From: a virus | Lineage: Duplodnaviria; Heunggongvirae; Uroviricota; Caudoviricetes | Direction: 5' to 3' (one strand) | DNA: 22,039 bases | IMG/VR virus record: IMGVR_UViG_2609459792_000005 | Shown here: positions 2,515 to 22,039 of the stretch, one piece after another | Position numbering within the stretch: the stretch's first letter is position 1 | Layout of the letters: each line of letters starts with the position of its first letter | Translations under genes and position numbers: made by a program | Notes under the pieces: model-generated | What the model was told of the DNA's origin: nothing | Databases searched by the model: none | Seen by the model: the letters and a program-made list of their open reading frames with translations, nothing else

Positions 2515-2519
2515 GGGAT

Positions 2520-3218
2520 TTACTGCGAAAGTTTGTTAATGGAAAGGAAGCCGCCAAAGTTGCCGACGTTATTGCGAAACTTACAGCCACTCAGGCATTT
2601 GCTGCATTTATCCTTCGTGATATCGGACGTTGTCTGGTCATATTCATCCGCGACCGCCGGACCGTGATAACCGCACTCATCGCCGCGATAGGTCCAGGTG
2701 CAGGTGTTGGCCAGCATGATACGTCCCGGAAAAACAGCGCCATCTGTTTCCGTCGGCGTGGACAGTACAAAGGAGGCACTCACCGCGCTCAGTTCGCTGC
2801 ACTGCTCGATGCGCCAGCGGCTGATCACCTCCTGCTCCGGATCGGCGTCACTGTTTCCGTTGACGAAGTTCACCGCATCCAGAAAACGGGCATAAACCTT
2901 ACGCCTGACCACCGTTCCGCCGACCAGACTCTGCAGATCTTCCGCCATCCCGGTGACCATGCCATACAGGTTAGAAACCGTCAGCGTGGGGCGCGTACTG
3001 GTGCCTTTGCCATTCAGTTCGAAACCACTCCCCTGAATGGGATACGCCTGATACTGTCGCCCCTGCCAGGTGACCGGCTCACCTTTTTCGTTCTGCTCAT
3101 TACAGAAAAAATAACGTTCTCCACCGACCTCTGTCAGGTCGATTTCCCATAGCACCACGCTGGCCGACTGCTCCGCACGGGTGCATTCATTCAGTGTTTC
3201 CTGCCGGATATCCTGCAT
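2520..3218 (-). CDS. L: Minor tail protein L
   Basis: 232 aa, same length as lambda gpL as recalled; ATG overlaps the M stop (ATGA); C-terminal cysteine cluster (CTWTYRGDECGYHG ... CSKCLSGC); position M-L-K. Confidence 0.9.
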   Translation of the reverse strand: MQDIRQETLNECTRAEQSASVVLWEIDLTEVGGERYFFCNEQNEKGEPVTWQGRQYQAYPIQGSGFELNGKGTSTRPTLTVSNLYGMVTGMAEDLQSLVGGTVVRRKVYARFLDAVNFVNGNSDADPEQEVISRWRIEQCSELSAVSASFVLSTPTETDGAVFPGRIMLANTCTWTYRGDECGYHGPAVADEYDQTTSDITKDKCSKCLSGCKFRNNVGNFGGFLSINKLSQ

Positions 3219-3547
3219 CAGTTCACCACCTGTTCAAACTCTGCGCTGAACTCAACACGCAACATACTGACCCGCGACGACCATTTTGCGCAGGTCACCT
3301 TTATCTGCCGCCACTCATAAGGCGGCGTCCACAGAAAGGCTTTCCAGCCCCCGTGCTCTTCCAGAAACGACTCCAGTACCGTGGCCTCCTCACGGGGGAC
3401 AGAAAGCGTCACGCTGTACGTTTTCAGGTTGGCATTCAGCCCGGCAGGCGCTCGCTGAGAATAGCCATCACCAAAGCGCACCTTTCTTACAGAAGGGACC
3501 GAAGCCACATCCATACCGGGTTTCACTTTCCAGCGGAAGGTCTTCAT
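3218..3547 (-). CDS. M: Minor tail protein M
   Basis: 109 aa, same length as lambda gpM as recalled; start overlaps the H stop by 4 nt; position H-M-L. Confidence 0.9.
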   Translation of the reverse strand: MKTFRWKVKPGMDVASVPSVRKVRFGDGYSQRAPAGLNANLKTYSVTLSVPREEATVLESFLEEHGGWKAFLWTPPYEWRQIKVTCAKWSSRVSMLRVEFSAEFEQVVN

Positions 3548-6123
3548 CGTCCACCTCCGGAGAACAGGCCACCATCACGCATCTGTGTCTGAATTTCATC
3601 ACGGGCACCCTTGCGGGCCATGTCATACACCGCCTTCAGAGCAGCCGGACCTATCTGCCCGTTCGTGCCGTCGTTGTTAATCACCACATGGTTATTCTGC
3701 TCAAACGTCCCGGACGCCTGCGACCGGCTGTCTGCCATGCTGCCCGGTGTACCGACATAACCGCCGGTGGCATAGCCGCGCATCAGCCGGTAAAGATTCC
3801 CCACGCCAATCCGGCTGGTTGCCTCCTTCGTGAAGACAAACTCACCACGGTGAACAATCCCCGCTGGCTCATATTTGCCGCCGGTTCCCGTAAATCCTCC
3901 GGTTGCAAAATGGAATTTCGCCGCAGCGGCCTGAATGGCTGTACCGCCTGACGCGGATGCGCCGCCACCAACAGCCCCGCCAATGGCGCTGCCGATACTC
4001 CCGACAATCCCCACCATTGCCTGCTTAAGCAGAATTTCTGTCATCATGGACAGCACGGAACGGGTGAAGCTGCGCCAGTTCTGCTCACTGCCGGTCAGCA
4101 TCGCCGCCATATTCTGTGCAATACCATCAAAGGTCTGCGTGGCTGCACTTTTTACCTGCGACATACTGTCCGTGGCGCTCTCTTCCCACTCACTCCAGCC
4201 GGACTTCAGGCCTGCCATCCAGTTCCCGCGAAGCTGGTCTTCAGCCGCCCAGGTCTTTTTCTGCTCTGACATGACGTTATTCAGCGCCAGCGGATTATCG
4301 CCATACTGTTCCTTCAGGCGCTGTTCCGTGGCTTCCCGTTCTGCCTGCCGGTCAGTCAGCCCCCGGCTTTTCGCATCAATGGCGGCCCATTTTGCCCGTT
4401 GCTGCTGTGCGAATTTATCCGCCTGCTGCGCCAGCGCGTTCAGGCGCTCCTGATACGTAACCTTGTCGCCAAGTGCAGCCAGCTGGCGTTTGTACTCCAG
4501 CGTCTCATCTTTATGCGCCAGCAGGGATTTCTCCTGTGCAGACAGCTGGCGACGTTGCGCCGCCTCCTCCAGTACCGCGAACTGACTCTCCGCCTTCCAC
4601 AAATCCCGGCGCTGCTGGCTGATTTTCTCATTCGCTCCGGCATGCTTCTCCAGCGTCCGGAGTTCTGCCTGAAGCGTCAGCAGGGCAGCATGAGCACTGT
4701 CTTCCTGACGATCGCCCGCAGACACCTTCACGCCGGACTGTTTCGGCTTTTTCAGCGTCGCTTCATAATCCTTTTTCGCCGCCGCCATCAGCGTGTTGTA
4801 ATCCGCCTGCAGGATTTTCCCGTCTTTCAGTGCCTTGTTCAGTTCTTCCTGACGGGCGGTATATTTCTCCAGCGGCGTCTGCAGCCGTTCGTAAGCCTTC
4901 TGCGCCTCTTCGGTATATTTCAGCCGTGATGCCTCAGACTCGGCCCAGTCCTTTGCTGCCATCTCTCTGGCCTTTTCAAGATCGGCCTGCAACGTGGCGG
5001 CTGAAAGCCCAAGTTGCGCATTCGCTCTGTCCTCCCATGCTCCCCGGAGATTGGCAAGAAATGCTGAGGTTTTACCGCGCCGGTGGCTCCGGCTCTGATA
5101 CCACTGCCATTTTTTGTCCGCCTCATCAAAAGCCTTTTCTGCTTTCTCCAGCATTCCCTGGGCAGTGTCCGGGCGACCAATATCCAGCACCGAATCCCAC
5201 ATGGATTTGAATGCCCGTGCTGTCCTGTCTGCCCAGGTCTCCAGCGTGCCCATGTTCTCTTTCAGGCGGCGGGTCTGGTCATCAAACCCTTTCGTTGCGG
5301 CCTCGTTCGCCGCCTGCAATGCCCCGGCTTCATCTCCGGAACGCTGCAACTGAGCAACATACGCAATCTGCTCCGCCGTCACGTTATGGAACTGACGTGC
5401 CATCGCTGTCAGTCCCGACGTCGGGTCTGTGGTCAGCTTCCCGAAGGCTTCAGCGACCTTGTCCACCTCCACGCCGGATGCAGAGGAGAAACGCGCCACA
5501 CTCTGGCTGATCGCCTCAAACTGCTCACCACCACGCACACCGGCATTCACCAGCGCCGTCAGTGACTCGCTGGTCTGGTTAAACGTCAGCCCTGCCGCCT
5601 GCCCGGCTCTGGACAGGACCAGCATACGATCTGCCGTCAGTCCCGCCTGATTGCCGGAAAGGACCAGCGTTTTGTTGAAATCGGACAGGGTTGAGTTGCC
5701 CTGATACCAGGCATACGCCAGCGCACCGGTCGCCACCGCCAGCGAGGTGGCCCCCACCATCGGCAGGGTGATCGCACCGGCAAGCCCCCTGAACATGGGG
5801 ATCATCCCGCCGAAGGAGTCCTTAACCTGACCCCCCTGTTGCAGCAGGATCAGCCACGGGCTTTGCCCGCCTGCAAGCTGCGTGGCCACGTCGGTGAACT
5901 GTGCAGGCAGCATACGCATGGCGGCTTTATACTGCCCGACGGAAATCCCCGCTTTCTGTGCAGCCAGCGCCTGTCGGCTCAGCGACTGTTCAACGACTGC
6001 CGCTGTTTTTTTCGCATCAGTTTCCGTACCGGAAAAATGACGCCTGACTCTGGCCATCTGCTCGTCAAATCTGGCCGCATCCAGACTTAAATCAACGACC
6101 AGATCGCCTACCGGTTCAGCCAT
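3544..6123 (-). CDS. H: Tail tape measure protein H
   Basis: 859 aa ORF (lambda gpH recalled as 853 aa); long predicted coiled-coil/alpha-helical region; glycine-rich hydrophobic segment near C-terminus (GGAVGGGASASGG); immediately downstream of G/T. Confidence 0.9.
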   Translation of the reverse strand: MAEPVGDLVVDLSLDAARFDEQMARVRRHFSGTETDAKKTAAVVEQSLSRQALAAQKAGISVGQYKAAMRMLPAQFTDVATQLAGGQSPWLILLQQGGQVKDSFGGMIPMFRGLAGAITLPMVGATSLAVATGALAYAWYQGNSTLSDFNKTLVLSGNQAGLTADRMLVLSRAGQAAGLTFNQTSESLTALVNAGVRGGEQFEAISQSVARFSSASGVEVDKVAEAFGKLTTDPTSGLTAMARQFHNVTAEQIAYVAQLQRSGDEAGALQAANEAATKGFDDQTRRLKENMGTLETWADRTARAFKSMWDSVLDIGRPDTAQGMLEKAEKAFDEADKKWQWYQSRSHRRGKTSAFLANLRGAWEDRANAQLGLSAATLQADLEKAREMAAKDWAESEASRLKYTEEAQKAYERLQTPLEKYTARQEELNKALKDGKILQADYNTLMAAAKKDYEATLKKPKQSGVKVSAGDRQEDSAHAALLTLQAELRTLEKHAGANEKISQQRRDLWKAESQFAVLEEAAQRRQLSAQEKSLLAHKDETLEYKRQLAALGDKVTYQERLNALAQQADKFAQQQRAKWAAIDAKSRGLTDRQAEREATEQRLKEQYGDNPLALNNVMSEQKKTWAAEDQLRGNWMAGLKSGWSEWEESATDSMSQVKSAATQTFDGIAQNMAAMLTGSEQNWRSFTRSVLSMMTEILLKQAMVGIVGSIGSAIGGAVGGGASASGGTAIQAAAAKFHFATGGFTGTGGKYEPAGIVHRGEFVFTKEATSRIGVGNLYRLMRGYATGGYVGTPGSMADSRSQASGTFEQNNHVVINNDGTNGQIGPAALKAVYDMARKGARDEIQTQMRDGGLFSGGGR

Positions 6124-6550
6124 ACCGGACTCCTCCTGCGATCCCTTCTGATACTGTCATCAGCATTACGTCATCCTCCGTCATGTCCGCCACATCCGGG
6201 GAAGTAGGGATAACTTCATTCCCGTCCGGGCCAAAGCGGACACCTCCGGCAAGCCCTGCCGCTTTCTGCATCAGCACATCATCTTCAGGCTCTTCGTCAG
6301 CCTCACGCCGGTTCAGCAAACTGAAATCCAGCGGATGCATATCCGGATCGCTGAAAAACAGGCTGAGCACGGTGTACGTCAGCCCGGAAAAGTGCATATC
6401 CAGCAGAACATCATGAAAATAATGGGTACTGTAAAAGCGGTGCCAGTCGGCATACTCCGTGGATGACATCCCGGCAAGCATGGCACGCCAGTCGGGTCGC
6501 CCCATCTCACGCGCCAGTTTCAGGGCAAAACTCAGCTCACCGTCGAACAC
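6116..6550 (-). CDS. T: Tail assembly chaperone T-frame segment, expected to be expressed only as the G-T fusion after a -1 frameshift
   Basis: Open frame in the -1 frame relative to G, beginning inside the slippery heptamer; the track start is a GTG that is probably not an initiation codon; 435 nt as for lambda T. Confidence 0.8.
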   Translation of the reverse strand: MFDGELSFALKLAREMGRPDWRAMLAGMSSTEYADWHRFYSTHYFHDVLLDMHFSGLTYTVLSLFFSDPDMHPLDFSLLNRREADEEPEDDVLMQKAAGLAGGVRFGPDGNEVIPTSPDVADMTEDDVMLMTVSEGIAGGVRYG

Positions 6551-6954
6551 TTTCCCGCAGAAACAGGCTCTGCGGGCCCGGCGTCCTCTGTCTGTTCAGG
6601 GGCATTATTCACCACAAACTCATACATACCAGACAGCCGGTACACCACGTTTTCAGCATGAGAAATTGCCTCCGTGGGCCAGGTGGTAAGCACTTCCTGC
6701 TCAATCTGTTTAACGGCTTCATTCATGGACGGCATCTGCGTCTTCTGCGGATGGTTATGCCACAGGGACATCGCCACCAGAAACGCGCCGGTTCTGATGG
6801 CGTCTTCCACAGTAAACTTCCGGTTGCTGTCTGACTCCGCCTGTTCTGCCTGCCGTTTCATCAGGGCGAGATGCTCAATACGCTGCAGGGCTGACAGTTC
6901 AGAAAGCGTGACGGTCACACCGTTATGTTCAAATGATTCGGTTTTCAGGAACAT
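6532..6954 (-). CDS. G: Tail assembly chaperone G
   Basis: 140 aa as for lambda gpG as recalled; ends ...SAGKCSTVS with the slippery site 6 codons before the stop. Confidence 0.9.
   Translation of the reverse strand: MFLKTESFEHNGVTVTLSELSALQRIEHLALMKRQAEQAESDSNRKFTVEDAIRTGAFLVAMSLWHNHPQKTQMPSMNEAVKQIEQEVLTTWPTEAISHAENVVYRLSGMYEFVVNNAPEQTEDAGPAEPVSAGKCSTVS
6550..6556 (-). promoter_or_regulatory. Programmed -1 ribosomal frameshift slippery heptamer G GGA AAG for G-T fusion
   Basis: Minus-strand GGGAAAG (plus strand CTTTCCC at 6550-6556); GGA and AAG are in the G frame (codons 134-135); after a -1 slip the reading continues GGG AAA GTG TTC GAC ... which is the T frame. Confidence 0.85.
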
Positions 6955-6969
6955 CGCTGACTCTCCGGA

Positions 6970-7710
6970 TTAACTGGCGGTGACGTTGATTTCTGCAACC
7001 GCAGCAAACTCACCATTACCGGATACAACCGGAATGTTGACCTTGCCTGCAGCAACACCTTTCACGGTGATGGTCATACCACTGACCGACACGGTGGCTT
7101 TTGTTTTATCCGCAGACACCGCACGGAAGCTCTTGTCGGTTGCGCCCTCCGGCTGGAATGCCACGGTCAGCGTGGTGCTCTGCCCTTTCACTACGGAAGC
7201 ACTGGCGGGTGTCACCGTCATGCCGGTTGTCGCCGTCACCGTGCTGCGATCTTCTGCCATCGACGGACGTCCCACATTGGTGACTTTCACCGTGCGGGTG
7301 ATCACTTCCTTCGCCGTCACCGCCTTACCGATACTGCTGACCCAGCCGCGGAACACATCGACCGTGCCGTTCGGGAAGCGGATTTTATAGGCACGGGTAT
7401 CGCCTTCATTAAACCACGCCAGCAGCGCCTGCTGCCCCTGCTCTCCGGGCATCCACGCCAGCGTGAAGCTGGTATCTCCGGCAGATTTCTGCCCCTGCCC
7501 GGTCGCAGTCCAGTCTGCATCTTCATCATCGAGATAGCTGTCGTCATAGGACTCAGCGGTCAGTTCGCCGGGCGTCAGGTCTTTAACTTTTGCCAGACGC
7601 GACCAGTCAACGTCTGAAAGCGGATTCGCATAAGGGTCACCGCTCCCCTTATAAACCCACAGGGTGGTCCCGGCACCTTTCACCGGCATTACAGGATTTG
7701 GTACAGGCAT
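6970..7710 (-). CDS. V: Major tail tube protein V with C-terminal Ig-like domain
   Basis: Track ORF is 256 aa from an upstream start; ATG at 7710 with GAGGA RBS gives 246 aa starting [12 protein letters not shown], matching lambda gpV length as recalled; C-terminal Ig-like repeat region. Confidence 0.9.
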
Positions 7711-7717
7711 AGCGTCC

Positions 7718-8113
7718 TCACATTTCATAGGTAATGACATACGTCAGATCGGCTGAACTCCACAGGCCCGCATCATCGTCGCGCCGGTAGTCATAGCCGC
7801 TGGCCACCATACTGGTGATCAAATCTGACAGTGCCGGGATATCGCTCATCACCGGATAAATCCGGGACTCCATCCACGCATCCAGCTCTGAATCCGGCAC
7901 CTGAGCAGGCAGGAAAACTTCGATATGCAGCTCCGCCTGCCAGGTATCGCTGTCCAGCTCTTCGCCCGTGTATTCAGCGCCGGTGAGATAAACGGCAACT
8001 GCCGGAAAATCCGCCTCATCAAAAACAGCGGGGCGACCATCAAAAAGCGTCGCCCCGGTGTCATGCTTCTCCAGTGCATCCAGTACGGCTGCACGGAGTT
8101 CAGTATGTTTCAT
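7718..8113 (-). CDS. U: Tail terminator protein U
   Basis: 131 aa as for lambda gpU as recalled; position Z-U-V; start overlaps Z stop. Confidence 0.85.
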
Positions 8114-8688
8114 CGCTTTATTACCATTCTCAGTTGATGCTGCAGCGCATAGCCCAGCTCTTTCGGAAGACGTTCACGCCGTATCCGTTCAATATTCTGT
8201 TTAAACGCCGTGGTAAGCGGCACCGCCATCGGGATTTTCACCACATCAATGGGGTAACGGTTTTTCCCGGCCACACGCTGCATGACATGCCACCGGCCAT
8301 TTTTCAGTTGCTGAATAAACGCGCCGGGAATACGACGGTTTCCCACCACAAGCACGCTGCCGCCACCTTTCAGGGATGAACGCTGCCCCTTTTTACGACG
8401 TCTGCGGCGGGAAAGGACAACCCGCGCGTTACCCAGCTTGATTACGGGCAAATCCCCCCGGTTAACCCTGATTCTGGCCTGCGGATTTTTGATCGTGGCC
8501 CTTTTCAGCCTGGCCCTTTCCTTTACCAGTTTCCGGCGTACCTTTGTCTCACGGGCAACCTGTGCCACCGACTGCGATATCGCGGATGAAGCAACGCGGT
8601 TAATGGCCATTGCGGCGGCACCGGGCACCGCCGTTCTGCTGATACGGCTGAGGTTTTCAACGGCCTGCTCAAGACCTTTTATGGCCAT
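8110..8688 (-). CDS. Z: Tail completion protein Z
   Basis: 192 aa as for lambda gpZ as recalled; basic Arg/Lys-rich stretch; position FII-Z-U. Confidence 0.85.
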   Translation of the reverse strand: MAIKGLEQAVENLSRISRTAVPGAAAMAINRVASSAISQSVAQVARETKVRRKLVKERARLKRATIKNPQARIRVNRGDLPVIKLGNARVVLSRRRRRKKGQRSSLKGGGSVLVVGNRRIPGAFIQQLKNGRWHVMQRVAGKNRYPIDVVKIPMAVPLTTAFKQNIERIRRERLPKELGYALQHQLRMVIKR

Positions 8689-8699
8689 ACATCCCCCTT

Positions 8700-9053
8700 T
8701 CAGCGGCGACGGTTAACGGCAGGCGGTACGCCCCGCCCAAGCCAGAGATGACAGCTTCCGCCATCATCCGGCGAAATCCGGTCTATCCAGAAGTTTTCCT
8801 CACCGATGGTCAGCGTGTCGCCGCGCCGCAGCTGCCGCACATCATCAGTCCGGACAAACAGGGACGGGCTGGAGCCTTCAACGCGCACGCCCTGTCCGGC
8901 ATAGCTGATATTTTCAGGGTCATCAAAAACACCACGTATCACAGCACCGGACTGCTCACCGGATGTCATGGTGGCTGACGTTCCCATGTACCCGCGTATC
9001 GTTTCATCGGCGCAGGCAATGGCAGCATCGAACAGGTTATCGAAATCAGCCAC
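8700..9053 (-). CDS. FII: Head-tail connector protein FII
   Basis: 117 aa as for lambda gpFII as recalled; position FI-FII-Z. Confidence 0.85.
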   Translation of the reverse strand: MADFDNLFDAAIACADETIRGYMGTSATMTSGEQSGAVIRGVFDDPENISYAGQGVRVEGSSPSLFVRTDDVRQLRRGDTLTIGEENFWIDRISPDDGGSCHLWLGRGVPPAVNRRR

Positions 9054-9064
9054 AGCGCCTCCCG

Positions 9065-9460
9065 TTATTGCATTCTGGCCAGGCCGCGCTCTGTCATTTC
9101 AGCTGCCACACCGGCAGAGACACGGAACGCCGTTCCCGGCAGCACAAATGCCACAGCCTCATCCCGCGTGGCGTGAAGTGCATCAGTATGCAGCGTCACC
9201 AGTGCCACAACCGTGACCAGATCAGCCGTATCAGTCACGGTATCCGGCTGCGCTGATACAACCTCATTTTCATGTCCGGTCAGCACATTTTCCGGGCTGA
9301 GAGGGGTATCCTGATCGGCAGTGTCGCCCGTGTCATCAAGCTCTTCTTCCAGCTCTGCCACACGGAGCGCCAGTTCTTCTTTCGTCCCCGTCAGGCTGAT
9401 ATCACGGTTCAGTTGTTCACCCAGCGAGCGGAGACGGGCAATCAGTTCATCTTTCGTCAT
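9065..9460 (-). CDS. FI: DNA packaging accessory protein FI
   Basis: Track ORF starts further upstream inside a hairpin; ATG at 9460 has a strong GGAGGAG RBS and gives 131 aa starting MTKDELIARLRSLGEQLNRD, close to lambda gpFI; position E-FI-FII. Confidence 0.8.
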   Translation of the reverse strand: MTKDELIARLRSLGEQLNRDISLTGTKEELALRVAELEEELDDTGDTADQDTPLSPENVLTGHENEVVSAQPDTVTDTADLVTVVALVTLHTDALHATRDEAVAFVLPGTAFRVSAGVAAEMTERGLARMQ

Positions 9461-9501
9461 GGACTCCTCCACAGAGAAACAATGGCCCCGAAGGGCCATG
9501 A

Positions 9502-10527
9502 TTACGCCAGTTGTACGGACACGAACGCATCAGGGTCAGCCAGCAGCATCAGCGGTGCTGACTGAATCATGGTGAACTCACGCGCCGGATCGCCGGTGGT
9601 CACCCAGTTTTTCGGGTAGCGGGCAGAGGCGTTAATACCTTCGCGCTGTGCGTCCGCATCCTGAATGCAGCCATAGGTGCGCAGACCGCGTGCCTGAGTG
9701 TTCCCCAGCACCATCGTGTTGTCCGGCAGGAAGTTCTTTTTGACGTCGTTTTCCACGTACTGTCCGGAATACACGACGATCGCCGTATCGCCATACATCC
9801 CCTTATAGGACACCGCTTCGCCCAGGTCTTTTACCGCTGTCTCCAGCTCGGAATTAGAGCCGCGACGGGTATCCAGCTTCTCCCTGACGGCTTTGAAGGA
9901 ACGGAACAGCGCCCAGCCTTTCGGGTCAAACACGATGATATTCACCACGCCGCTGGCGTTCAGCGCGTAGGCTTCGATATCGTCGGTCGGGTCATACGTG
10001 GACTTGTCACGCTTGCTCCACTCCGTGCCGCCGGACTGCGTGATATTGTTCGCCGCACTGCGGCCCATATCCACCTCAACCGGATCGAAGGCTTCACCGG
10101 TCATGGTGTATTTGCCCTTGAGCACGGCAGAAACTGCCTGCATCTCTTCGACCTGAGCAATGGCCAGCTCTTCGTCACGCATGTTCTGCATGATGATGCG
10201 ACGGCGGCGGTAAGCCGGGTCCGCCAGATTCTGCGGATCTTCATCCGGCAGGCGACGCAGGGTCATCTGCGGATTCACCTCATGCTTGGGTTTGACATAT
10301 CCCGGCGTAAATTCAGAGGTGGAGCCGCCACGGGAACGGATAACCTCACCGGAAACAATCGGCGAAACGTACAGCGCCATGTTTACCAGTCCCGGAATTT
10401 GTGAGAGATAGACTTTCTCCGTAGTGAAGGGATAGCTCTCACGGAAAAAGAGACGCAGAAACAGCGGATCAAACTTAAATTTCTGCTCATTTGCCGCCAG
10501 CAGCTGGGCGGTTGTGTACATCGACAT
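9502..10527 (-). CDS. E: Major capsid protein E
   Basis: Protein from ATG at 10527 starts MSMYTTAQLLAANEQKFKFDPLFLRLFF and is 341 aa as for lambda gpE; the track ORF uses an upstream GTG. Confidence 0.9.
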   Translation of the reverse strand: MSMYTTAQLLAANEQKFKFDPLFLRLFFRESYPFTTEKVYLSQIPGLVNMALYVSPIVSGEVIRSRGGSTSEFTPGYVKPKHEVNPQMTLRRLPDEDPQNLADPAYRRRRIIMQNMRDEELAIAQVEEMQAVSAVLKGKYTMTGEAFDPVEVDMGRSAANNITQSGGTEWSKRDKSTYDPTDDIEAYALNASGVVNIIVFDPKGWALFRSFKAVREKLDTRRGSNSELETAVKDLGEAVSYKGMYGDTAIVVYSGQYVENDVKKNFLPDNTMVLGNTQARGLRTYGCIQDADAQREGINASARYPKNWVTTGDPAREFTMIQSAPLMLLADPDAFVSVQLA

Positions 10528-10582
10528 AAAAAAATCCCGTAAAAAAAGCCGCACAGGCGGCCTTTAGTGATGAAGGGTAAAG

Positions 10583-10915
10583 TTAAACGATGCTGATTGC
10601 CGTTCCGGCAAACGCGGTCCGTTTTTTCGTCTCGTCGCTGGCAGCCTCCGGCCAGAGCACATCCTCATAACGGAACGTGCCGGACTTGTAGAACGTCAGT
10701 GTGGTGCTGGTCTGGTCAGCAGCAACCGCAAGAATGCCAACGGCAGCACCGTCGGTGGTGCCATCCCACGCAACCAGCTTACGGGTGGATGTGTCCAGCA
10801 TCAGCGGGGTCATTGCAGGCGCTTTCGCACTCAATCCGCCGGGCGCGGTTGCGGTATGAGCCGGGTCACTATTGCCCAGCGGCTGGTAATGGGTAAAGGT
10901 TTCTTTGCTCGTCAT
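10583..10915 (-). CDS. D: Head decoration protein D
   Basis: From ATG at 10915 the protein starts [12 protein letters not shown] and is 110 aa as for lambda gpD; the track ORF has 2 extra N-terminal residues. Confidence 0.9.
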
Positions 10916-10924
10916 AAACATCCC

Positions 10925-11530
10925 TTACACTGGTGTGTTCAGCAAATCGTTAACGGCATCAGATGCCGGGTTACCTGCAGCCAGCGGTGCCGGTGCCCCC
11001 TGCATCAGACGATCCAGCGCAGTGTCACTGCGCGCCTGTGCACTCTGTGGTGCAGCTGCCAGAATGCGGCGGGCCGTTTCCACGGTCATACCGGGGGTTT
11101 CTGCCAGCACGCGGGCCTGTTCTTCGCGTCCGTGAGCCTCCTCACAGTTGAGGATCCCCATAATGCGGCTGTTTTCTGCCGCAACCGCAGCGGTGATCTG
11201 CGCGTTCACGTCCGGCTGCGCCGCGCTGGCGTTTTCGCCCTCCGTCGCTGGCACTACGTCAGTAACGTCAGCCTGCGAAGCAGTGGCTGAAACAGTTGTT
11301 GATTGAGTCTCTTTGGTCATTCGCCCTCCTGAGAGACGGGATTTACGTGCATCCAGTGCATCACGCATAACGGTGATCGCATCGGTGCTGTTGACAAGTT
11401 CATCAGCCAGTCCGGCATCAATGGCCTCCTGACCGCTGTACACTGCAGCCTCGGTATCCAGCACAGCCTGCACGGACAGGCCGGTATATGCCGACACCTT
11501 CTGTGCAAACATCCGGCGGGTTGCATCCAT
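10925..11530 (-). CDS. Nu3: Scaffolding protein Nu3, in-frame internal start within C
   Basis: In-frame ATG at 11530-11528 gives 201 aa starting MDATRRMFAQKVSAY, co-terminal with C, as in lambda C/Nu3 nesting. Confidence 0.7.
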   Translation of the reverse strand: MDATRRMFAQKVSAYTGLSVQAVLDTEAAVYSGQEAIDAGLADELVNSTDAITVMRDALDARKSRLSGGRMTKETQSTTVSATASQADVTDVVPATEGENASAAQPDVNAQITAAVAAENSRIMGILNCEEAHGREEQARVLAETPGMTVETARRILAAAPQSAQARSDTALDRLMQGAPAPLAAGNPASDAVNDLLNTPV

Positions 11531-12224
11531 CCGGGACTGCAATGTTTCCCGGACATCATCCGGTAGATGGCTGTAGGGGTTGCCATCCACCTTATGGCTG
11601 CCGCTGTAAATCAGCGTGATTTCCACGCCCTGTTTCTCCAGTGCAGCGCCGTAATTACTGTGAGCCATCATGACGCCGATGGAGCCTGTCCGGGCGGTCT
11701 GCGTGACCAGACGCCGGGAGGCGGCGCTGGCAAGCAACTGACCTGCACTGCAGTTCATGTCGTTGGCCAGCGCCCATACCGGCTTTATGTCACGCACACG
11801 GGCGATGATGTCAGCGCAGTCAAATGCCCCTGCCACCATCCCGCCTGGCGTATCCATATCGAGCAGAATGCCGTCCACCATCGGGTCGCTGGCAGCCTGT
11901 TGCAGACGGGCGATAATGCCGTTGTAACCGGTCATCCCCGAATACGGCTGCAGCGCTCGCGTCCGACTGACCAGCGTGCCGGACACCGGCAGCACGGCGA
12001 TGCCTTTCATGACCTGATAACTGCGGGCCTGTCGTGGTCCGTCATCATCAACGGATAACGCCAGCGCCGCGGGTGCCTCTCCGGCAGTCAGGCTGTCGCC
12101 GGATACCGCATCCGTCAGGCGGCTGATCCCAAGCTGGCCTGCAAGCGCACAAAAGAAAACCCGCGCATAGGCGGGTTCAAGCATCAGCGGCTCATTAAAG
12201 GCCATACTGGCAATATGCGGGAGA

Positions 12225-12244
<20 letters not shown>
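10925..12244 (-). CDS. C: Capsid assembly protease C (ClpP/S49-like serine protease)
   Basis: GTG start at 12244-12242 preceded by AGGAGG gives 439 aa (lambda gpC length as recalled); overlaps B 3' end by 20 nt; the track ORF extends to an upstream start inside B. Confidence 0.85.
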
Positions 12245-15925
<3,681 letters not shown>

Positions 15926-15951
<26 letters not shown>

Positions 15952-16471
15952 TCAGCAACCCCGGTATCAGTTCATCCAGCGCGGCTGCTTTGTTCATGGC
16001 TTTGATGATATCCCGTTTCAGGAAATCAACATGTCGGTTTTCCAGTTCCGGAAAACGCCGCTGCACCGACAGGGGGATCCCGTCGAGAATACTGGCAATT
16101 TCACCTGCGATCCGCGACAGCACGAAAGTACAGAATGCGGTTTCCACCACTTCAGCTGAGTCTCTGGCATTCTTCAGTTCCTGTGCGTCGGCCTGCGCAC
16201 GCGTAAGTCGATGGCGTTCGTACTCAATAGTCCCTGGCTGGAGATCTGCCTCGCTGGCCTGGCGCAGTTCTTCAACCTCCCGGCGCAGCTTTTCGTTCTC
16301 AATTTCAGCATCCCTTTCGGCATACCATTTTATAACGGCGGCAGAGTCATAAAGCACCTCATTACCCTTGCCACCGCCTCGCAGAACGGGCATTCCCTGT
16401 TCCTGCCAGTTCTGAATGGTACGGATACTCGCACCGAAAATGTCAGCCAGCTGCTTTTTGTTGACTTCCAT
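15926..16471 (-). CDS. Nu1: Terminase small subunit Nu1
   Basis: 181 aa as for lambda gpNu1 as recalled; starts MEVNKKQLADIFGASIRTIQNWQEQGMPV (helix-turn-helix); begins just inside cosB. Confidence 0.9.
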
Positions 16472-16489
16472 TGTTCATTCCACGGCCAA

Positions 16490-16615
16490 AAACAGAGAAA
16501 GGAAACGACAAAGGCCCAAAAGCTCGTTTTCAGCACCTGTCGTTTCCTTTCTTTTCAGGGGGTATTTTAAATAAAAACATTAAGTTACAACGAAGAAGAA
16601 CGGAAATGCCTTAAA
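16490..16615. promoter_or_regulatory. cosB: terminase small-subunit binding sites R1 (16496-16510), R2 (16538-16552, inverted), R3 (16591-16610) and AT-rich IHF-type site I1 (about 16559-16582)
   Basis: Three copies of the GTTTCC-containing motif (tgtcgtttcctttct and its inverse agaaaggaaacgaca, plus ggcatttccgttcttcttcg in reverse complement) arranged as in lambda cosB as recalled. Confidence 0.65.
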
Positions 16616-16648
16616 CCGGAAAATTTTCATAAATAGCGAAAACCCGCG

Positions 16649-16660
16649 AGGTCGCCGCCC
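16649..16660. other. cosN cohesive-end sequence, intact and joined
   Basis: Plus-strand aggtcgccgccc is the reverse complement of the lambda 12-nt cohesive end GGGCGGCGACCT; flanking bases also match the lambda ends as recalled. Confidence 0.8.
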
Positions 16661-16859
16661 CGTAACCTGTCGGATCGCCGGAAAGGACCCGCAAAATGAT
16701 AATAATTATCATCTGCATGTCACAACGTGCATCTACGCCATCAAACCACGTCAAATAATCAATTATGACGCAGGTATCATATTAATTGATCTGCATCAAC
16801 TTAACGTAAAAACAACTTCAGACAATACAAATCAGCGACACTGAATACGGGACAACCTC

Positions 16860-17093
16860 ATGTCAACGAAGAACAGAACCCGCAGAACAACAACCCGCAA
16901 CATCCGCTTTCCTAACCAAATGATTGAACAAATTAACATCGCTCTTGATCAAAAAGGGTCCGGGAATTTCTCAGCCTGGGTCATTGAAGCCTGCCGCCGG
17001 AGACTGTGCTCAGAAAAAAGAGTTTCTCCTGAAGCAAACAAAGAAAAGAGTGACATTACTGAATTGCTCAGAAAACAGATCAGACCAGATTGA
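16860..17093 (+). CDS. Small ribbon-helix-helix (Arc/Mnt/CopG-like) putative DNA-binding protein with Arg-rich N-terminus
   Basis: 77 aa ORF; segment IRFPNQMIEQINIALDQKGSGNFSAWVIEACRRRL fits the RHH pattern (beta-strand R-F-P, helix A, G-x-S/N turn, helix B), compare Arc NLRWPREVLDLVRKVAEENGRSVNSEIYQRVMESF recalled from memory; weak RBS; strand opposite to the late operon. Confidence 0.5.
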   Translation: MSTKNRTRRTTTRNIRFPNQMIEQINIALDQKGSGNFSAWVIEACRRRLCSEKRVSPEANKEKSDITELLRKQIRPD

Positions 17094-17149
17094 AGCAATT
17101 TAGATAATCGTGCAGACTACACCCCTCATATCACATGGAAGGTACTACA

Positions 17150-17560
17150 ATGGCTCAGGTTGCCATTTTTAAACAAATATTCGATAAAGTGCGAAATAAT
17201 TTAAACTATCACTGGTTTTATTCTGAACTAAAACGTCACAATGTCTCACATTACATTTACTATTTAGCCACAGAGAATATTCATCTTGTTCTTGAAAACG
17301 ATAATACGGTTTTAATAAAAGGACAGGGTAAGGTTGTAAATGTAAGATTTTCAAAAAATAAATGCCTTATAGAAGCCACCTTAAAAGGATTCAAATCAGG
17401 AGAGTTATCATTTTACGAATACAGGAAAAATCTTGCTACAGCAGGGGTTTTCAGATGGATTACAAATATCCACGAAAACAAAAGGTATTACTATACCTTT
17501 GATAATTCATTACTCTTTACTGAGAACATTCAGAACACTACACAAATATTTCCGCACTAA
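17150..17560 (+). CDS. Hypothetical protein, probably YbcV/DUF1398-family (prophage protein of unknown function)
   Basis: ORF 17135-17560 in track; second ATG at 17150 has a GGAAGG RBS 9 nt upstream and gives 136 aa starting [14 protein letters not shown]; AT-rich composition; 42-57 bp downstream of the RHH gene on the same strand; family assignment is from memory and uncertain. Confidence 0.55.
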
Positions 17561-17818
17561 ATCATAACGTCCGGTTTCTTCCGTGCCAGAACCGGCCTCG
17601 CTGGCATGATGAAATATGTGTACCCGGTAACCCCGGTGTGCATCGTTTTTGATTATTCCCACACACTCGCGCAGAAGGAGTTCCCCGTCGGGCTACGGTC
17701 TCTGTTAATACGGGAATACGGCGACGATACAGCGCATGATGTGTCAGGCTTGAATACCTTTATCCTTTAAAAGGGATATCAGTTAAGTTATCCCGTGTAG
17801 GGTATAAGCCATTATCAA

Positions 17819-17844
17819 AGCCACTCTGTAGGAAGTGGCTTTTG
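17819..17844 (+). terminator. Putative rho-independent terminator for the plus-strand RHH/DUF1398 unit
   Basis: Stem agccact / agtggct with 8-nt loop followed by TTTTG. Confidence 0.35.
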
Positions 17845-17855
17845 TAATGGCAATA

Positions 17856-17878
17856 AAAAGCCCCGCGAATGCGAGGCT
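17856..17878 (-). terminator. Putative rho-independent terminator downstream of Rz (minus strand)
   Basis: GC-rich imperfect stem (gcctcgc att cgcgggg c on minus strand) followed by TTTTTATTG. Confidence 0.3.
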
Positions 17879-18081
17879 AAATCCTGGTATTTGTAATGAC
17901 TGGCTCTTATCTCAACGCAGCCCCTTACCGCGCGCAAAATGCTCAATATCAAGCATCAGCAATGAGATGTTTAATCTGGATTCACTCCAGAAGTGAGCAC
18001 CACCCTGTCTACAGAGCCAGATGTGAAGGATGATGAGTAAAATTATCGCTATCATCGAAGGCATTGCGTCCTGATGTATTC

Positions 18082-18531
18082 CTAAAGCGTTCTCAGTGCT
18101 GTTTGGTCGCGGATAATTCCGTCCCGGATACCGAGAACGTTTCGTCCAGCAACTGGAGAGAGTTCGACGGTGGCATCATTGCCCATGCCGGAGGCGCTGG
18201 AGGTTTCGGCTGAGGATGGCACAGGGCATTTTCCTTTGACGAGCACCCGACCACCATTATCAAGCTTGCGCCGAAGAGCATCATTTTCAGCTTTCGCATC
18301 AGCTAACTCCTTCGTGTATTTATCATCGAGTGCATCAGCATCACGCTGGCGCTGCTGCATGTCAGTAATGGTGGCGTTCGCCTTCTCCAGTTCACTGGCC
18401 TTGTTATCGCGCTGTTCTTTGTAGGCGATTGCATTATCACGGTAATGATTAACAGCCCATGACAGGCAGACGATGATGCAGATAACCAGAGCGGAGATAA
18501 TCGCGGTTACCCTGCTCATTGTTGCCCCCAC
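18082..18531 (-). CDS. Rz: Inner-membrane spanin subunit Rz (i-spanin)
   Basis: 149 aa; N-terminal TM segment ([16 protein letters not shown]) then coiled-coil-like charged region; follows the endolysin with a 16-nt overlap; contains the embedded Rz1 frame. Confidence 0.85.
18093..18299 (-). CDS. Rz1: Outer-membrane lipoprotein spanin subunit Rz1 (o-spanin), embedded in the +1 frame of Rz
   Basis: 68 aa; signal peptide with lipobox VVGC; proline-rich mature region ([16 protein letters not shown]); wholly inside Rz. Confidence 0.8.
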
Positions 18532-19013
18532 AAACAGACCTCACGCTCAATCTCACGACGAGTCATCAGGCCTTTCCATTGCTTACCGCCAGCGTATGCC
18601 CAGCGACGTAGCTGGTCACATGCGCCCTTGATATCGCCCTGGTTTATTTTGCGAAGAAGAGTAGATGTTCTGAAATTGCCTGCGCCCACGTTATAGACGA
18701 ACGAGTAAAGAGCGCCGCGCGTTGTTTCCGGTATATCGACTTTGATGTACGGGTTAATTTGTCTGGCTACCGTGGCAAGGTCTTTATTCAGGAGGGCTTT
18801 GCATTCTGCTTCGGTATACGTTTTACCGAGCATGATGTCTTTTCCTGTATGCCCGTGACATACAGTCCATACACCAACAATATCTTTGTATGGTATGTAG
18901 CTGACACCTTCCAGACCATCGTTACCACTTGGGCCAGTGATTAACACTGATGCTATAGCAATTGCTCCGCCACCAATAGCAGCAGCAACGACTTTTCGTA
19001 ATGATGGAGGCAT
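18516..19013 (-). CDS. R: SAR (signal-anchor-release) endolysin, phage 21 R-type lysozyme
   Basis: 165 aa; Gly/Ala-rich weakly hydrophobic N-terminal SAR segment ([18 protein letters not shown]) followed by T4-lysozyme-like catalytic region ([20 protein letters not shown]); recognised as close to phage 21 R. Confidence 0.9.
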
Positions 19014-19228
19014 TATTCACCTCTCGCAGCCTTGCGCTTATCTTCTTTAATCTTGAAATAAAGGTTTGTCAGGTACGTCAGCAGGCCAAATACCAGACTA
19101 CCCAGCACACCGATTGCAGCCCACTGTGACGGAGTTACTCTATCGAGCAACTGTAAAAACCAGTAGCCAGCACTGCCTGCGGAGGTGCCGTAGGCAATGC
19201 CTGTTGAAATTTTGTCCATGGATTTCAT
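19013..19228 (-). CDS. S: Pinholin, phage 21 S-type, dual-start motif (Met1 at 19228, Met4 at 19219)
   Basis: Protein [31 protein letters not shown]... 71 aa, two TM segments, charged C-terminus; strong GGAGGTGAGG RBS immediately upstream of ATG 19228; the track ORF extends 19 codons further upstream (to 19285) with no RBS. Confidence 0.85.
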
Positions 19229-19327
19229 AGCCTCACCTCCGCACGGAACGGATGGCATAGTTATTATGTGTAGGCTTTCAGACACATCAATCAGAGCCTT
19301 AATTGATATATATGCTGGAGACGATGC

Positions 19328-19354
19328 AATATAAAAAGCTCGCCGTAGCGAGCT
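19328..19354 (-). terminator. Putative rho-independent terminator after the lipoprotein genes, upstream of S
   Basis: Perfect 7-bp stem agctcgc/gcgagct with 4-nt loop (19337-19354) followed on the minus strand by TTTTAT. Confidence 0.4.
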
Positions 19355-19479
19355 AATAAAATGTATTTCTCTGATATTATGTTTATTTGTATTAGCTCAG
19401 ACTTGACATCACAGGTTTCGTATATAGAACATCATCAAATCTGTCAGTTTGCTATGAATGAGATATAGTAATTGAAGAG

Positions 19480-19875
19480 CTAACCTCGCATGTCAAAGCC
19501 AGATTTCTGAAAATCTCTGTAGACTTCCGGATTGTTGAAGGCCGGAAATTTGGCTTTATGAGCTGCGGACTTTATCGCTTCGCAATAGGCTTTATCACCG
19601 TTACTGGTAGATATTTTTAACGCCGTGCCATCCTGAGAGAATTCCATATGCAACCTGCATTTTTTCCCTTTCCAGTTATGCGGCTCATCAAGTTTGGCAT
19701 TAATTGCAGCTCTGATTCCCCGCGCTTGCGCCCCCCATTCATCCTGATCATCCCAGCGTCCTGAACTGCAACTACCTGTAGCAGTAGTTTTGTGGCAATC
19801 TGAAGGGTGTAAAGGTGTGCATCCCGCAACAAAACCGACCCAAAAAGTCAACATAACGATTTTCTTTAATCCCAC
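19480..19875 (-). CDS. Lipoprotein with C-terminal TolA domain-III-like fold (paralog 2)
   Basis: 131 aa; GTG start with GAGGAG RBS 6 nt upstream; signal peptide plus lipobox VAGC; C-terminal region RGIRAAINAKL...WKGKKCRLHMEFSQDGTALKISTSNGDKAYCEAIKSAAHKAKFPAFNNPEVYRDFQ shares the conserved skeleton of the upstream paralog and of TolA domain III. Confidence 0.75.
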   Translation of the reverse strand: MGLKKIVMLTFWVGFVAGCTPLHPSDCHKTTATGSCSSGRWDDQDEWGAQARGIRAAINAKLDEPHNWKGKKCRLHMEFSQDGTALKISTSNGDKAYCEAIKSAAHKAKFPAFNNPEVYRDFQKSGFDMRG

Positions 19876-20025
19876 TTCTTGCTCCTCAATCCATTAAAAT
19901 CTCAGCAATAGTAGTTGTTACGTCCGCCACTGGCTCAGAGCTGACTATCCGCTAAATTTAGCTCAGTGCCGTAGCTGTGTCAGAACAAACCTAAGCCGAA
20001 ACCGTTTATTACAAAACAATAAATA

Positions 20026-20454
20026 TCAGGGTTTAAAATCCAGCACCCCATTTTGAAATACTTTATATACTTCCGGCGAAGGGGGGGCAGGTATATCAGC
20101 ATTCTTTATCGCATTCATCGCTTCACGACATAAATCGAGGTCTCCACTTTCTCTTTTAACCTCCAGTAGAAGGCCATTCGGGGCCATATGCATTCTCAGT
20201 GTACACTCTTTTCCTGAATACTTACTCGCATCCCCGAACTGTTTTTCGATGGCGCTCTTGATTTGATGGGCATACAGACGGATATCCTCACTAACATCAG
20301 AAGTACGTTCAGATGAACTCACATACTGTGTCTCTATTGCTTTATCGGAGTAATATGATGTACGGTCATGATAATTTGTCGATACAGCATCAGTGCACCC
20401 GATAATAATCCCACTAATAATCAACGTAAGAATTGATGCGCTACGAAAACCCAT
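20026..20454 (-). CDS. Lipoprotein with C-terminal TolA domain-III-like domain (paralog 1)
   Basis: 142 aa; ATG with GAGGA RBS; signal peptide plus lipobox IIGC; C-terminus YAHQIKSAIEKQFGDASKYSGKECTLRMHMAPNGLLLEVKRESGDLDLCREAMNAIKNADIPAPPSPEVYKVFQNGVLDFKP aligns closely with the recalled E. coli TolA C-terminus (YAGQIKSAIESKFYDASSYAGKTCTLRIKLAPDGMLLDIKPEGGDPALCQAALAAAKLAKIPKPPSQAVYEVFKNAPLDFKP). Confidence 0.8.
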   Translation of the reverse strand: MGFRSASILTLIISGIIIGCTDAVSTNYHDRTSYYSDKAIETQYVSSSERTSDVSEDIRLYAHQIKSAIEKQFGDASKYSGKECTLRMHMAPNGLLLEVKRESGDLDLCREAMNAIKNADIPAPPSPEVYKVFQNGVLDFKP

Positions 20455-20483
20455 TTTTCCTCACATATGTCATATAGTAAAGG

Positions 20484-20513
20484 ATTATATATACCGTTGT
20501 TTTGGACGCTCAA
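20484..20513 (-). promoter_or_regulatory. Candidate sigma70 promoter for the TolA-like lipoprotein genes
   Basis: Minus-strand TTGAGC (plus 20508-20513), 18-bp spacer, TATAAT (plus 20484-20489), about 30 nt upstream of the ATG at 20454. Confidence 0.25.
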
Positions 20514-21043
20514 ACAGCGAATCAGATCAAATAAAACGCACATTTGTTAACATTTACACAAAGTCTGCGTGGGATATTCTGAAAGAATATCCATAATGTG
20601 GAGAGAATCTATTGAAGTGCATGGTGCCGGGTGCCTCCCGGTGAACAAAATGTTCGTGATACCTGTCGGCGACAGAAAAGGTTAATGGTATCACCCCACC
20701 GCACAGGGGGATTCACCATGCAGGAGTTTTCTTAGCAAACTCACTGCGCGCCCGGCAACTCCCAACCACATAAAATGCGGAGTTTGTGGTATTTATGCAT
20801 ATAACTCGCAGGAATTATCTTAAAAAACTGATGTCGATCCGGATTAAAAAGAAGCAGGTCATCATCAGATGACTGGAAAAAAGGAAAAAAAAAATACTCA
20901 TCATACAGTTTTGATTGCAGGGATGAGCCTGCTATGCACAATATGCAGAATATAAGCAAGATAAAAATATGCAGGCATATTATTTCGGATTTTGTTATTA
21001 ACACAACCTTTTTAATAATCATTTGGCATACAATAAACCAGTC

Positions 21044-21070
21044 CAAAAAGAACCGCCTAAACAGGCGGTT
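21044..21070 (-). terminator. Putative rho-independent terminator (minus strand) in AT-rich region
   Basis: Stem aaccgcc/ggcggtt with 6-nt loop (21051-21070) followed on the minus strand by CTTTTTGG. Confidence 0.4.
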
Positions 21071-21339
21071 GGTCAATACAAAGGATGCTTCGTCTTTATT
21101 ATAGTAATCTGAGGCGTCGGGTGTCTTGTATCAGACAACATATTGTCCCGCTAAACAGCGAATTACAAACCACCCTGCAATGATCTCTCATCTCATTTTA
21201 TATGAGTTGACGACATCAGGATAACGCATCATCAGCCCCTGCCAAGAAATATCAAAACTCCCGCCAGCAATGTGTTATCACAATATTGTAAAAAAAACAC
21301 AGCACCGAAACTATAACTGGTCTCTGTTATAATTTGGAG

Positions 21340-21418
21340 CAGAAAGACCAGTTGCCCAACTAGCAGCATTCTCCCCTGCTTTCCTGACGTAAAAAAACCG
21401 CATTAAGCGGTTTTTTTA
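21340..21418 (+). ncRNA. Candidate short plus-strand transcript (about 75-80 nt) between an extended -10 promoter and the bidirectional terminator
   Basis: Extended -10 TGtTATAAT at 21325-21333 (weak -35); the terminator ends about 85 nt downstream; no ORF; inverted repeat aactggtc (21314-21321) / gaccagtt (21346-21353) brackets the -10. Confidence 0.2.
21391..21417. terminator. Bidirectional rho-independent terminator
   Basis: A7 - aaccgc - attaa - gcggtt - T7: a 6-bp stem flanked by A7 on one side and T7 on the other, so it reads as a terminator on both strands. Confidence 0.55.
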
Positions 21419-21563
21419 CGATGTCCATGTCTGCAATCCGCCTCGCGATACAGCTGTGCGAAGCATAGCAAAATTGAAGCAGTTTATACGTAAGAAATCA
21501 AGCCATTTTCTCAGCAAATGATTCACGCATGGGAATATATAGGGCATACTCAGCAACAGCTAA

Positions 21564-22039
<476 letters not shown>

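Follow-up and report, generated by a model that had tools for sequence, protein, structure and literature searches.

The window analysed here, the whole 22,039-nt stretch of DNA from a virus of the Caudoviricetes, carries two small lipoprotein genes between a Q-like antiterminator gene and the holin gene S, and all of the genes relevant to this analysis lie on its minus strand. The explanation that we favour, with moderate confidence, is that 19327-20513 constitutes a moron of two genes with a promoter and a terminator of its own, whose products would be lipoprotein decoys of TolA domain III. The moron concept is said to stem from the comparison of HK97 and HK022, and bor and lom of lambda are well-known examples. 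Like such lambdoid morons, the cassette consists of extra genes between normally adjacent neighbours, with a sigma-70-like promoter sequence, a candidate intrinsic terminator and a lower GC content, and its cargo is made up of envelope lipoproteins unrelated to virion assembly. Unlike them, its expression from the prophage is so far only predicted, the block that moves also takes in S and half of an RNA element, and the two genes are separable. The regulatory layout follows the textbook pattern of a moron and occupies the best-known position for cargo in lambdoid phages, and as such it is an ordinary feature.

Lipoprotein gene 1 (20026-20454, 142 amino acids) encodes a signal peptide with the lipobox IIGC, a linker and a TolA domain III, and lipoprotein gene 2 (19480-19875, 131 amino acids), which begins with a GTG start codon behind GAGGAG, encodes the lipobox VAGC, a cysteine-rich linker and a divergent TolA domain III. 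The initial annotation had called both products lipoproteins, and the two lipoboxes seen in the sequence bear this out. The lipobox cysteines are Cys20 in gene 1 and Cys19 in gene 2, each with a threonine at position +2; threonine at this position predicts sorting to the outer membrane, and both products are predicted to be outer-membrane lipoproteins. Pfam TolA_C (PF06519, cut-off 25 bits) matched gene 1 with an E-value of 2.4e-23 (82.6 bits) and gene 2 with 1.3e-14 (54.6 bits), and both proteins also matched a single PHROG of unknown function, phrog_5772. Against the TolA structures in the PDB, gene 1 matched entry 1s62 at 5e-28, with 52 of 88 residues (59%) identical to residues 334-421 of Escherichia coli TolA, while gene 2 matched at 5e-9, with 27 of 79 residues (34%) identical. 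The profile of full-length TolA, PRK09510, gave 107.8 bits for gene 1 and 53.7 bits for gene 2, both under its cut-off of 213, and TIGR02794 gave 75.6 bits for gene 1 (above its cut-off of 59.45) and 47.2 bits for gene 2 (below it). Since these full-length models were matched over their last ~80-100 positions only, TolA domains I and II are, on these alignments, absent from both proteins. The fold of TolA domain III can be regarded as fixed by sequence identity to solved structures (1s62, 1tol and 3qdp), and gene 1 retains both TolA cysteines, helix alpha-2 and the strand beta-3 LDFKP.

In RefSeq, gene 1 is recorded as a pseudogene ('tolA, incomplete, missing N-terminus') and gene 2 is started at a later, internal ATG, as seen for the annotated pair at 7191-7997 of the related locus L002, which is equivalent to 19480-20286 of the window. 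We doubt both calls, because the open reading frames are intact, the lipoboxes are present, the ribosome-binding sites are good and the genes are conserved, and the RefSeq annotation probably hides a real protein family. Numerous short representatives of TolA domain III were found in a survey at 50% identity, and a lipobox was present in 47 of 66 of these; the architecture is therefore that of a family and not a one-off.

Upstream of gene 1, the initial annotation had proposed a sigma-70 promoter (TTGAGC, 18 bp, TATAAT) about 30 nt before the gene, and the candidate was found at 20513-20484 on the minus strand, with the -35 hexamer TTGAGC at 20513-20508, an 18-bp spacer and the -10 hexamer TATAAT at 20489-20484. 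The two hexamers match the consensus at 10 of 12 positions, the end of the -10 hexamer lies 29 nt from the gene 1 ATG (20454), and the ribosome-binding site GAGGA precedes this start codon. A scan of both strands of the window by a simple position-weight matrix, built from published hexamer frequencies, ranked this site first among 44,008 positions, and its score was reached by 24 of 2000 dinucleotide shuffles (1.2%) of the 150 nt upstream of gene 1. Consensus sites were only mildly enriched across 17500-22039 (14 sites, with 9.0 +/- 3.0 expected). From spacing alone, transcription is predicted to start near the A at 20478, which would leave a 5' untranslated region of about 24 nt. No match to the promoter sequence was present in the accessible part of the supplementary start-site data for Shigella flexneri M90T. 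A second, weaker promoter-like site, CTGACA-17-TAAATT (score 10.96), is located between genes 1 and 2 at 19983-19951 on the minus strand; its -10 hexamer sits in a perfect 12-bp palindrome, GCTAAATTTAGC, which is a possible operator before gene 2. Part of this same stretch (CTGACA..ACTGAG) is common to the plasmid copies of gene 2 described below.

At the other end of the cassette, a perfect 7-bp hairpin with a U-rich tail had been noted between gene 2 and S, and its presence was confirmed at 19354-19327 on the minus strand, with about 100 nt between it and the start codon of S. It consists of AGCTCGC-TACG-GCGAGCT (19354-19337), a 7-bp GC-rich stem, followed by the T-rich tail TTTTTATATT (19336-19327), with a folding energy of -13 kcal/mol (z = -3.3); only 1 of 200 shuffles (0.5%) folded as well. 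On the plus strand the stem is followed by an A-rich stretch, so the hairpin would act on minus-strand transcripts only. We regard it as a credible candidate for an intrinsic terminator, positioned immediately ahead of S with its lethal holin product. The scan for terminator-like sites returned none between genes 1 and 2.

One could envisage that both signals are chance motifs in AT-rich intergenic DNA and that the genes themselves are decaying fragments of tolA. The region is indeed AT-rich, consensus scans pick up many sites (the 14 against 9 given above), and RefSeq labels gene 1 a pseudogene. However, neither frame is interrupted, each gene has a lipobox signal peptide and a good ribosome-binding site, more than 750 genomes conserve the sequence at 99% or above, the short TolA-domain lipoproteins to which the pair belongs form a diverse family, and few shuffles equalled either the promoter score (1.2%) or the hairpin energy (0.5%). 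We therefore consider this explanation very improbable.

The 1.33-kb cassette stretch had matches of 99% identity or more in 786 E. coli records and was present in 757-773 of the 5426 complete E. coli genomes in which its frequency was counted (773 with at least 80% query coverage), that is in ~14%, as well as in phage mEp460_ev081. S-type holin genes, by comparison, were found in 4750 of these 5426 genomes. Homology to prophages and phages that are free of the pair ends 10-40 nt upstream of the S start, and in phage 21 the gap between Q and S measures only ~370 nt, which holds pR', a terminator and two tRNA genes. Because S is widespread where the pair is missing, homology breaks off shortly before S and the gap in phage 21 is short, the pair is best described as extra DNA in the classical Q-S cargo slot of lambdoid phages. 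The gene order in the window (Q-like gene, lipoprotein pair, S, R, Rz/Rz1, Nu1, A, portal, then on) agrees with the placement of the pair inside a late operon that had been given for it.

The extent of the travelling block was assessed by comparison of about 80 IMG/VR loci, together with others. Its upstream end was either at 20645, inside an STnc100-family RNA element, or reached on to the IS5 interruption at 21563, and the block stopped downstream either where S meets R (19012-19026) or inside Rz (18272). In none of the ~80 loci compared did a shared block end at the promoter or at the hairpin, and S accompanied the pair in all of the near-identical loci. On this comparison, the block that travels is the one from the middle of the STnc100-family RNA through S. 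A 37-nt match in strain E41 was considered as a 3' edge of the cassette and rejected, being due to a deletion associated with IS1 and uninformative on the edge. The description of the cassette as self-contained in the initial annotation was thus too strong, as S and half of the STnc100 element are included. The moron reading itself holds in so far as the DNA is accessory, occurs in two Q contexts and is flanked by promoter-like and terminator-like sites, but it does not hold in the sense of a unit that runs from promoter to terminator, and the genes are separable.

GC content also proved to be a matter of region. While the 0.416 measured for 19328-20513 is clearly lower than the 0.572 of the structural genes (1202-16471), as had been pointed out before, both 16472-18081 and 20514-21563 also have a value of 0.41, with S and R at 0.48-0.49 falling in between (S, R and Rz together range from 0.48 to 0.53). 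Low GC is therefore a trait of the whole accessory and lysis region and not peculiar to the pair, whose flanks are equally low.

Each of the two genes also occurs by itself. Alleles of gene 1 with 91%, 66% and 65% identity were found without gene 2 in other Q-S contexts, where their neighbours were tRNA genes, an AraC-type gene, a methylase gene or an esterase gene, and one chimeric allele combined a different 5' half and upstream region with an identical 3' half followed by gene 2, the hairpin and S. Relatives of gene 2 with ~88% identity were found on ~600 plasmids (at 4965-5396 of locus L110 and 4003-4434 of locus L003, among the loci compared). Such a relative follows the relaxase gene at a distance of 68 nt on a conjugative IncK2/Z plasmid and has a nikB remnant as its neighbour on plasmids of the pO157 type. 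TolA-domain relatives as a whole were present in 917 plasmid records, of which 488 were predicted to be conjugative. Further relatives of gene 2, at 70-89% identity, were found in the chromosomes of Enterobacter, Klebsiella, Citrobacter, Kluyvera and Leclercia, and no lysis genes of the S, R or Rz type were present within 4 kb of these. In contig L062 (~4500-5700) an IS5-like element lies between genes 1 and 2, at a position equivalent to 19948-19955 of the window, and the pair can therefore be split by insertion. The pair had been treated as a unit in the initial annotation; with gene 1 alone in other phages and gene 2 on plasmids, the cargo is, as far as these contexts indicate, a composite of two separable genes and not an obligate pair.

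Several points weigh against the favoured explanation. The -35 hexamer of the candidate promoter matches the consensus at only 4 of 6 positions, and the spacer is 18 bp. In the 91% allele of gene 1 (P0007, listed on 49 contigs), the -10 hexamer, read in the four loci L101-L104, is TGTAAT, which loses the key A at -11 and lowers the score from 12.8 to 7.5, while the -35 hexamer and the STnc100 element are retained. At the matching place in the 65-66% alleles and in the plasmid copies no equally good promoter was present, and for both genes the search for equally strong promoters in front of diverged alleles gave results that were mixed to negative. Selection on the hexamers was sought in 80 loci, in which the copies are at least 99% identical and variation is too low to reveal it. 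Compensatory changes in the terminator-like hairpin were sought in the same number of loci, where the near-identical copies offered too few differences: one change compatible with G-U pairing, one disruptive change and one in the loop, with no others. On expression from the repressed prophage and an altered host phenotype, which together define lysogenic conversion, neither transcript, reporter nor phenotype data for the pair were found in the literature. The decoy function is proposed from domain identity, and the PADLOC defence models returned no match. Finally, the STnc100 element upstream, which lacks its U-tail, could be the real source of transcripts for the lipoprotein genes, as considered below.

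A rival explanation is that the cassette is late-only cargo, with no working promoter of its own and expressed only on the Q-dependent late transcript, so that the lipoproteins would act in lytic growth. In one variant, titration of TolB or Pal would weaken the outer membrane and aid lysis and release, and the hairpin would be a Q-sensitive terminator that guards S. The genes are part of the late operon, share its orientation and directly precede S, which is always found with the pair in near-identical loci; the -10 hexamer is damaged in the 91% allele and a strong promoter is absent from the other alleles; and blocking the contact between TolA and TolB is known to destabilise the outer membrane (PMC4339652). 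In contrast, no other site in the 22 kb scores as high as the promoter-like site, which is also well placed, relatives of gene 2 occur on conjugative plasmids and on the chromosomes of other genera with no S-, R- or Rz-type genes within 4 kb, and a terminator right behind the cargo would be expected if something upstream were transcribed in the lysogen. Expression as late-only cargo thus seems to us unlikely, although it is the alternative to be taken most seriously.

The STnc100-family element occupies 20751-20565 on the minus strand, directly upstream of the candidate promoter, and ends 52 nt before its -35 hexamer. It matched Rfam RF02076 over the full length of the model with 86.6 bits, the gathering score being 47. 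The consensus for this family ends in a GC-rich terminator hairpin and a U-tail; the last hairpin of the copy in the window, GGAUAUUC/GAAUAUCC, is AT-rich, and the consensus positions of the U-tail are deleted. As the U-tail is missing, any STnc100 transcript would run on into gene 1. It could thus be argued that the element has its own promoter and a decayed terminator and that the genes are transcribed by read-through, with the RNA as their 5' leader and TTGAGC/TATAAT as a secondary or incidental feature. In keeping with this, the Rfam match is far above threshold in spite of the altered 3' end, the distance to the -35 hexamer is short, the 91% allele also keeps the element and gene 1 together, and RT-qPCR on vesicle preparations has revealed STnc100 transcripts in E. 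coli (PMC12370729). Against it, the scans gave no convincing promoter upstream of 20751, and canonical copies elsewhere lie downstream of cargo with strong terminators, like 3' modules of the preceding cassette. Read-through from STnc100 is accordingly held to be improbable as the source of expression.

Canonical copies, with the GC-rich hairpin and the U-tail, were found downstream of homologs of gene 1 in loci L097, L102 (two in tandem) and L105; copies of the element outside the window are at 3704-3877, 4599-4803 and 4854-5061 of L102, 3786-3995 of L105 and 5444-5634 of L001. An STnc100-family element has also been placed 75 nt downstream of stx2B (PMC12370729), and a preprint describes STnc100 as frequent in the flanks of prophages (10.64898/2026.05.13.724894). 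From their positions, STnc100 elements are likely to be recurrent spacer or terminator units between cargo cassettes and likely points of recombination. The stx operon and the other Q-S cargo of Stx phages resemble the present case in their location, a hot spot between the Q/pR'/tRNA region and S, in their late-operon orientation, and in having STnc100 behind the cargo, as is the case for the homologs of gene 1 in L097, L102 and L105. Unlike stx, the cargo described here consists of TolA-domain lipoproteins and no toxin, its STnc100 element is upstream and tail-less, and a short separate hairpin ends the cassette. The small RNA sRNA-17 of E. coli K1 RS218, from an mEp460-like prophage (PMC7719688), was considered and rejected, its probe sequence being absent from the window and from 104 loci.

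Further upstream, all that remains of the Q-like antiterminator gene (DUF1133 / phrog_753) is its final 64 nt (21499-21563, minus strand), as the gene has been severed by an insertion of an IS5-family element, the end of which fills 21564-22039 on the minus strand with the C-terminus of a DDE transposase (Pfam DDE_Tnp_1). The element ends in the inverted repeat CTTATTCGCACCTTCC, which we take to be that of IS5, at the target TTAG, and the junction was established against the intact locus L002. Those related loci that extend this far all lack the insertion, and late-gene activation may be impaired in the prophage in which Q has been split. In mEp460 the Q that precedes the shared block is of the PF03589 type, with tRNA genes in between; in strain ECCHD184, as in many IMG/VR contigs, it is of the DUF1133 type. 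We also considered the candidate promoter as the Q-dependent late promoter pR', and rejected this because the same block follows two unrelated types of Q; the site is also ~1 kb from the Q-like gene, and no likeness to the binding repeats of the Q21 type (TGAGCA twice, between -35 and -10) was seen in it. Two strong minus-strand hairpins, at 21415-21390 and 21070-21051, lie within the ~750 nt between the Q-like remnant and STnc100. The former has the form AAAAAAACCGC-TTAAT-GCGGTTTTTTT (-19.7 kcal/mol), and AACCGCC...GGCGGTT followed by CTTTTT is found in the 21040-21130 region. Because these hairpins intervene, unmodified transcription from upstream should not reach the cassette. A further promoter-like sequence, AAGACA-18-TATAAT, is also present between the Q-like gene and STnc100.

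If the cassette is a moron as we favour, the sigma-70 polymerase of the host would start near 20478 in the repressed prophage and would transcribe both genes as one mRNA of ~1.15 kb, a single message being proposed because no terminator-like site separates them. Transcription would halt at the hairpin (19354-19327), and the holin gene S would stay silent. During lytic growth, polymerase modified by Q and arriving from upstream would read through the hairpin into S, R and Rz. In the prophage studied here, since the Q-like gene is split by IS5, the promoter of the cassette may be the main route of expression that remains.

What the products do is more weakly inferred than how they might be expressed, and comes from domain identity alone. 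They may be decoys of TolA domain III that bind the ligands of TolA by beta-strand addition, with the translocation domains of group A colicins, g3p of filamentous phages, or TolB as the proposed ligands, and such decoys would shield the lysogen or the plasmid host from Tol-dependent import. In a mutational study, g3p, colicin N and TolB were all found to bind TolA through beta-strand addition involving residues 415-420, and a blocked contact between TolA and TolB gave a full tol phenotype with destabilisation of the outer membrane (PMC4339652). Helix alpha-2 and the strand LDFKP, both retained in gene 1, correspond to these binding sites on TolA. In contrast to E. coli TolA, the lipoproteins have no domains I and II, and a lipoprotein signal peptide takes the place of the inner-membrane anchor; with this anchor replaced, their domain III cannot be energised by TolQR. 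If the proteins are a family of decoys, more ligands would be intercepted by two divergent copies, at 59% and 34% identity to TolA, than by one. The literature yielded no functional study of the E. coli proteins or of their plasmid relative, and searches for phage- or plasmid-encoded TolA-like proteins, for their RefSeq accessions and for a TolA decoy gave nothing relevant.

Other phage proteins offer partial parallels. CPT_21_73 of phage 21 (L111, 414-740) is likewise the product of an accessory gene for the C-terminal periplasmic domain alone of an energy-transducing protein of the host, although in this case the domain is from TonB and not TolA, and the gene is located beyond the lysis genes and bor; by analogy, this suggests a similar decoy logic. 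Cor of phi80 and N15 is an exclusion lipoprotein of the same kind as Llp of T5. According to a bioRxiv preprint, Llp is a small outer-membrane lipoprotein of the phage that protects from further infection (10.64898/2026.03.26.714494). The lipoproteins of the window share with Llp and Cor that they are small, phage-encoded and predicted to be located in the outer membrane, but no sequence relation exists, and whereas Llp and Cor bind and block the receptor FhuA, copies of a host domain would titrate ligands.

The remainder of the window is that of a lambda-type late region, on the minus strand. The S gene (19013-19228) is of the phage 21 type, with the dual start MKSMDK and a match to Pfam Phage_holin_2_1 at 4.5e-35, and is followed by the lysozyme gene R (18516-19013), Rz/Rz1 (18082-18531), a low-GC accessory stretch (16472-18081), Nu1 (15926-16471) and the structural genes for tail, head, portal and terminase (gpA, protease, capsid E, tape measure), which together with Nu1 span 1202-16471. 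A terminator-like hairpin (17878-17859, minus strand) is present after Rz. Between Rz and Nu1, two genes of very low GC lie on the opposite strand (16860-17560, plus strand), a 77-codon open reading frame and a gene for a DUF1398 protein that PHROGs labels 'head protein'; the two look like another accessory insert.

The cargo of this cassette is thus more interesting than its layout, as ~14% of the complete E. coli genomes encode a TolA domain III predicted to be lipid-anchored and ~600 plasmids carry a relative of it. The presence of STnc100 elements at the borders of cassettes may explain the shuffling of cargo in the Q-S interval. That the lipoproteins of prophages and I-complex plasmids form one family of periplasmic TolA domain III decoys, and with it a Tol-directed form of exclusion or immunity not previously described, is a possibility that we put forward tentatively and with some doubt; such decoys would catch the TolA-binding strands of group A colicins or of g3p of filamentous phages ahead of TolA itself. 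As a matter of speculation, the location of the plasmid gene next to a relaxase gene would fit protection from pilus-specific filamentous phages. If the lipoproteins are decoys, they would give prophages and plasmids a simple means of protection against Tol-dependent colicins and pilus-specific filamentous phages.

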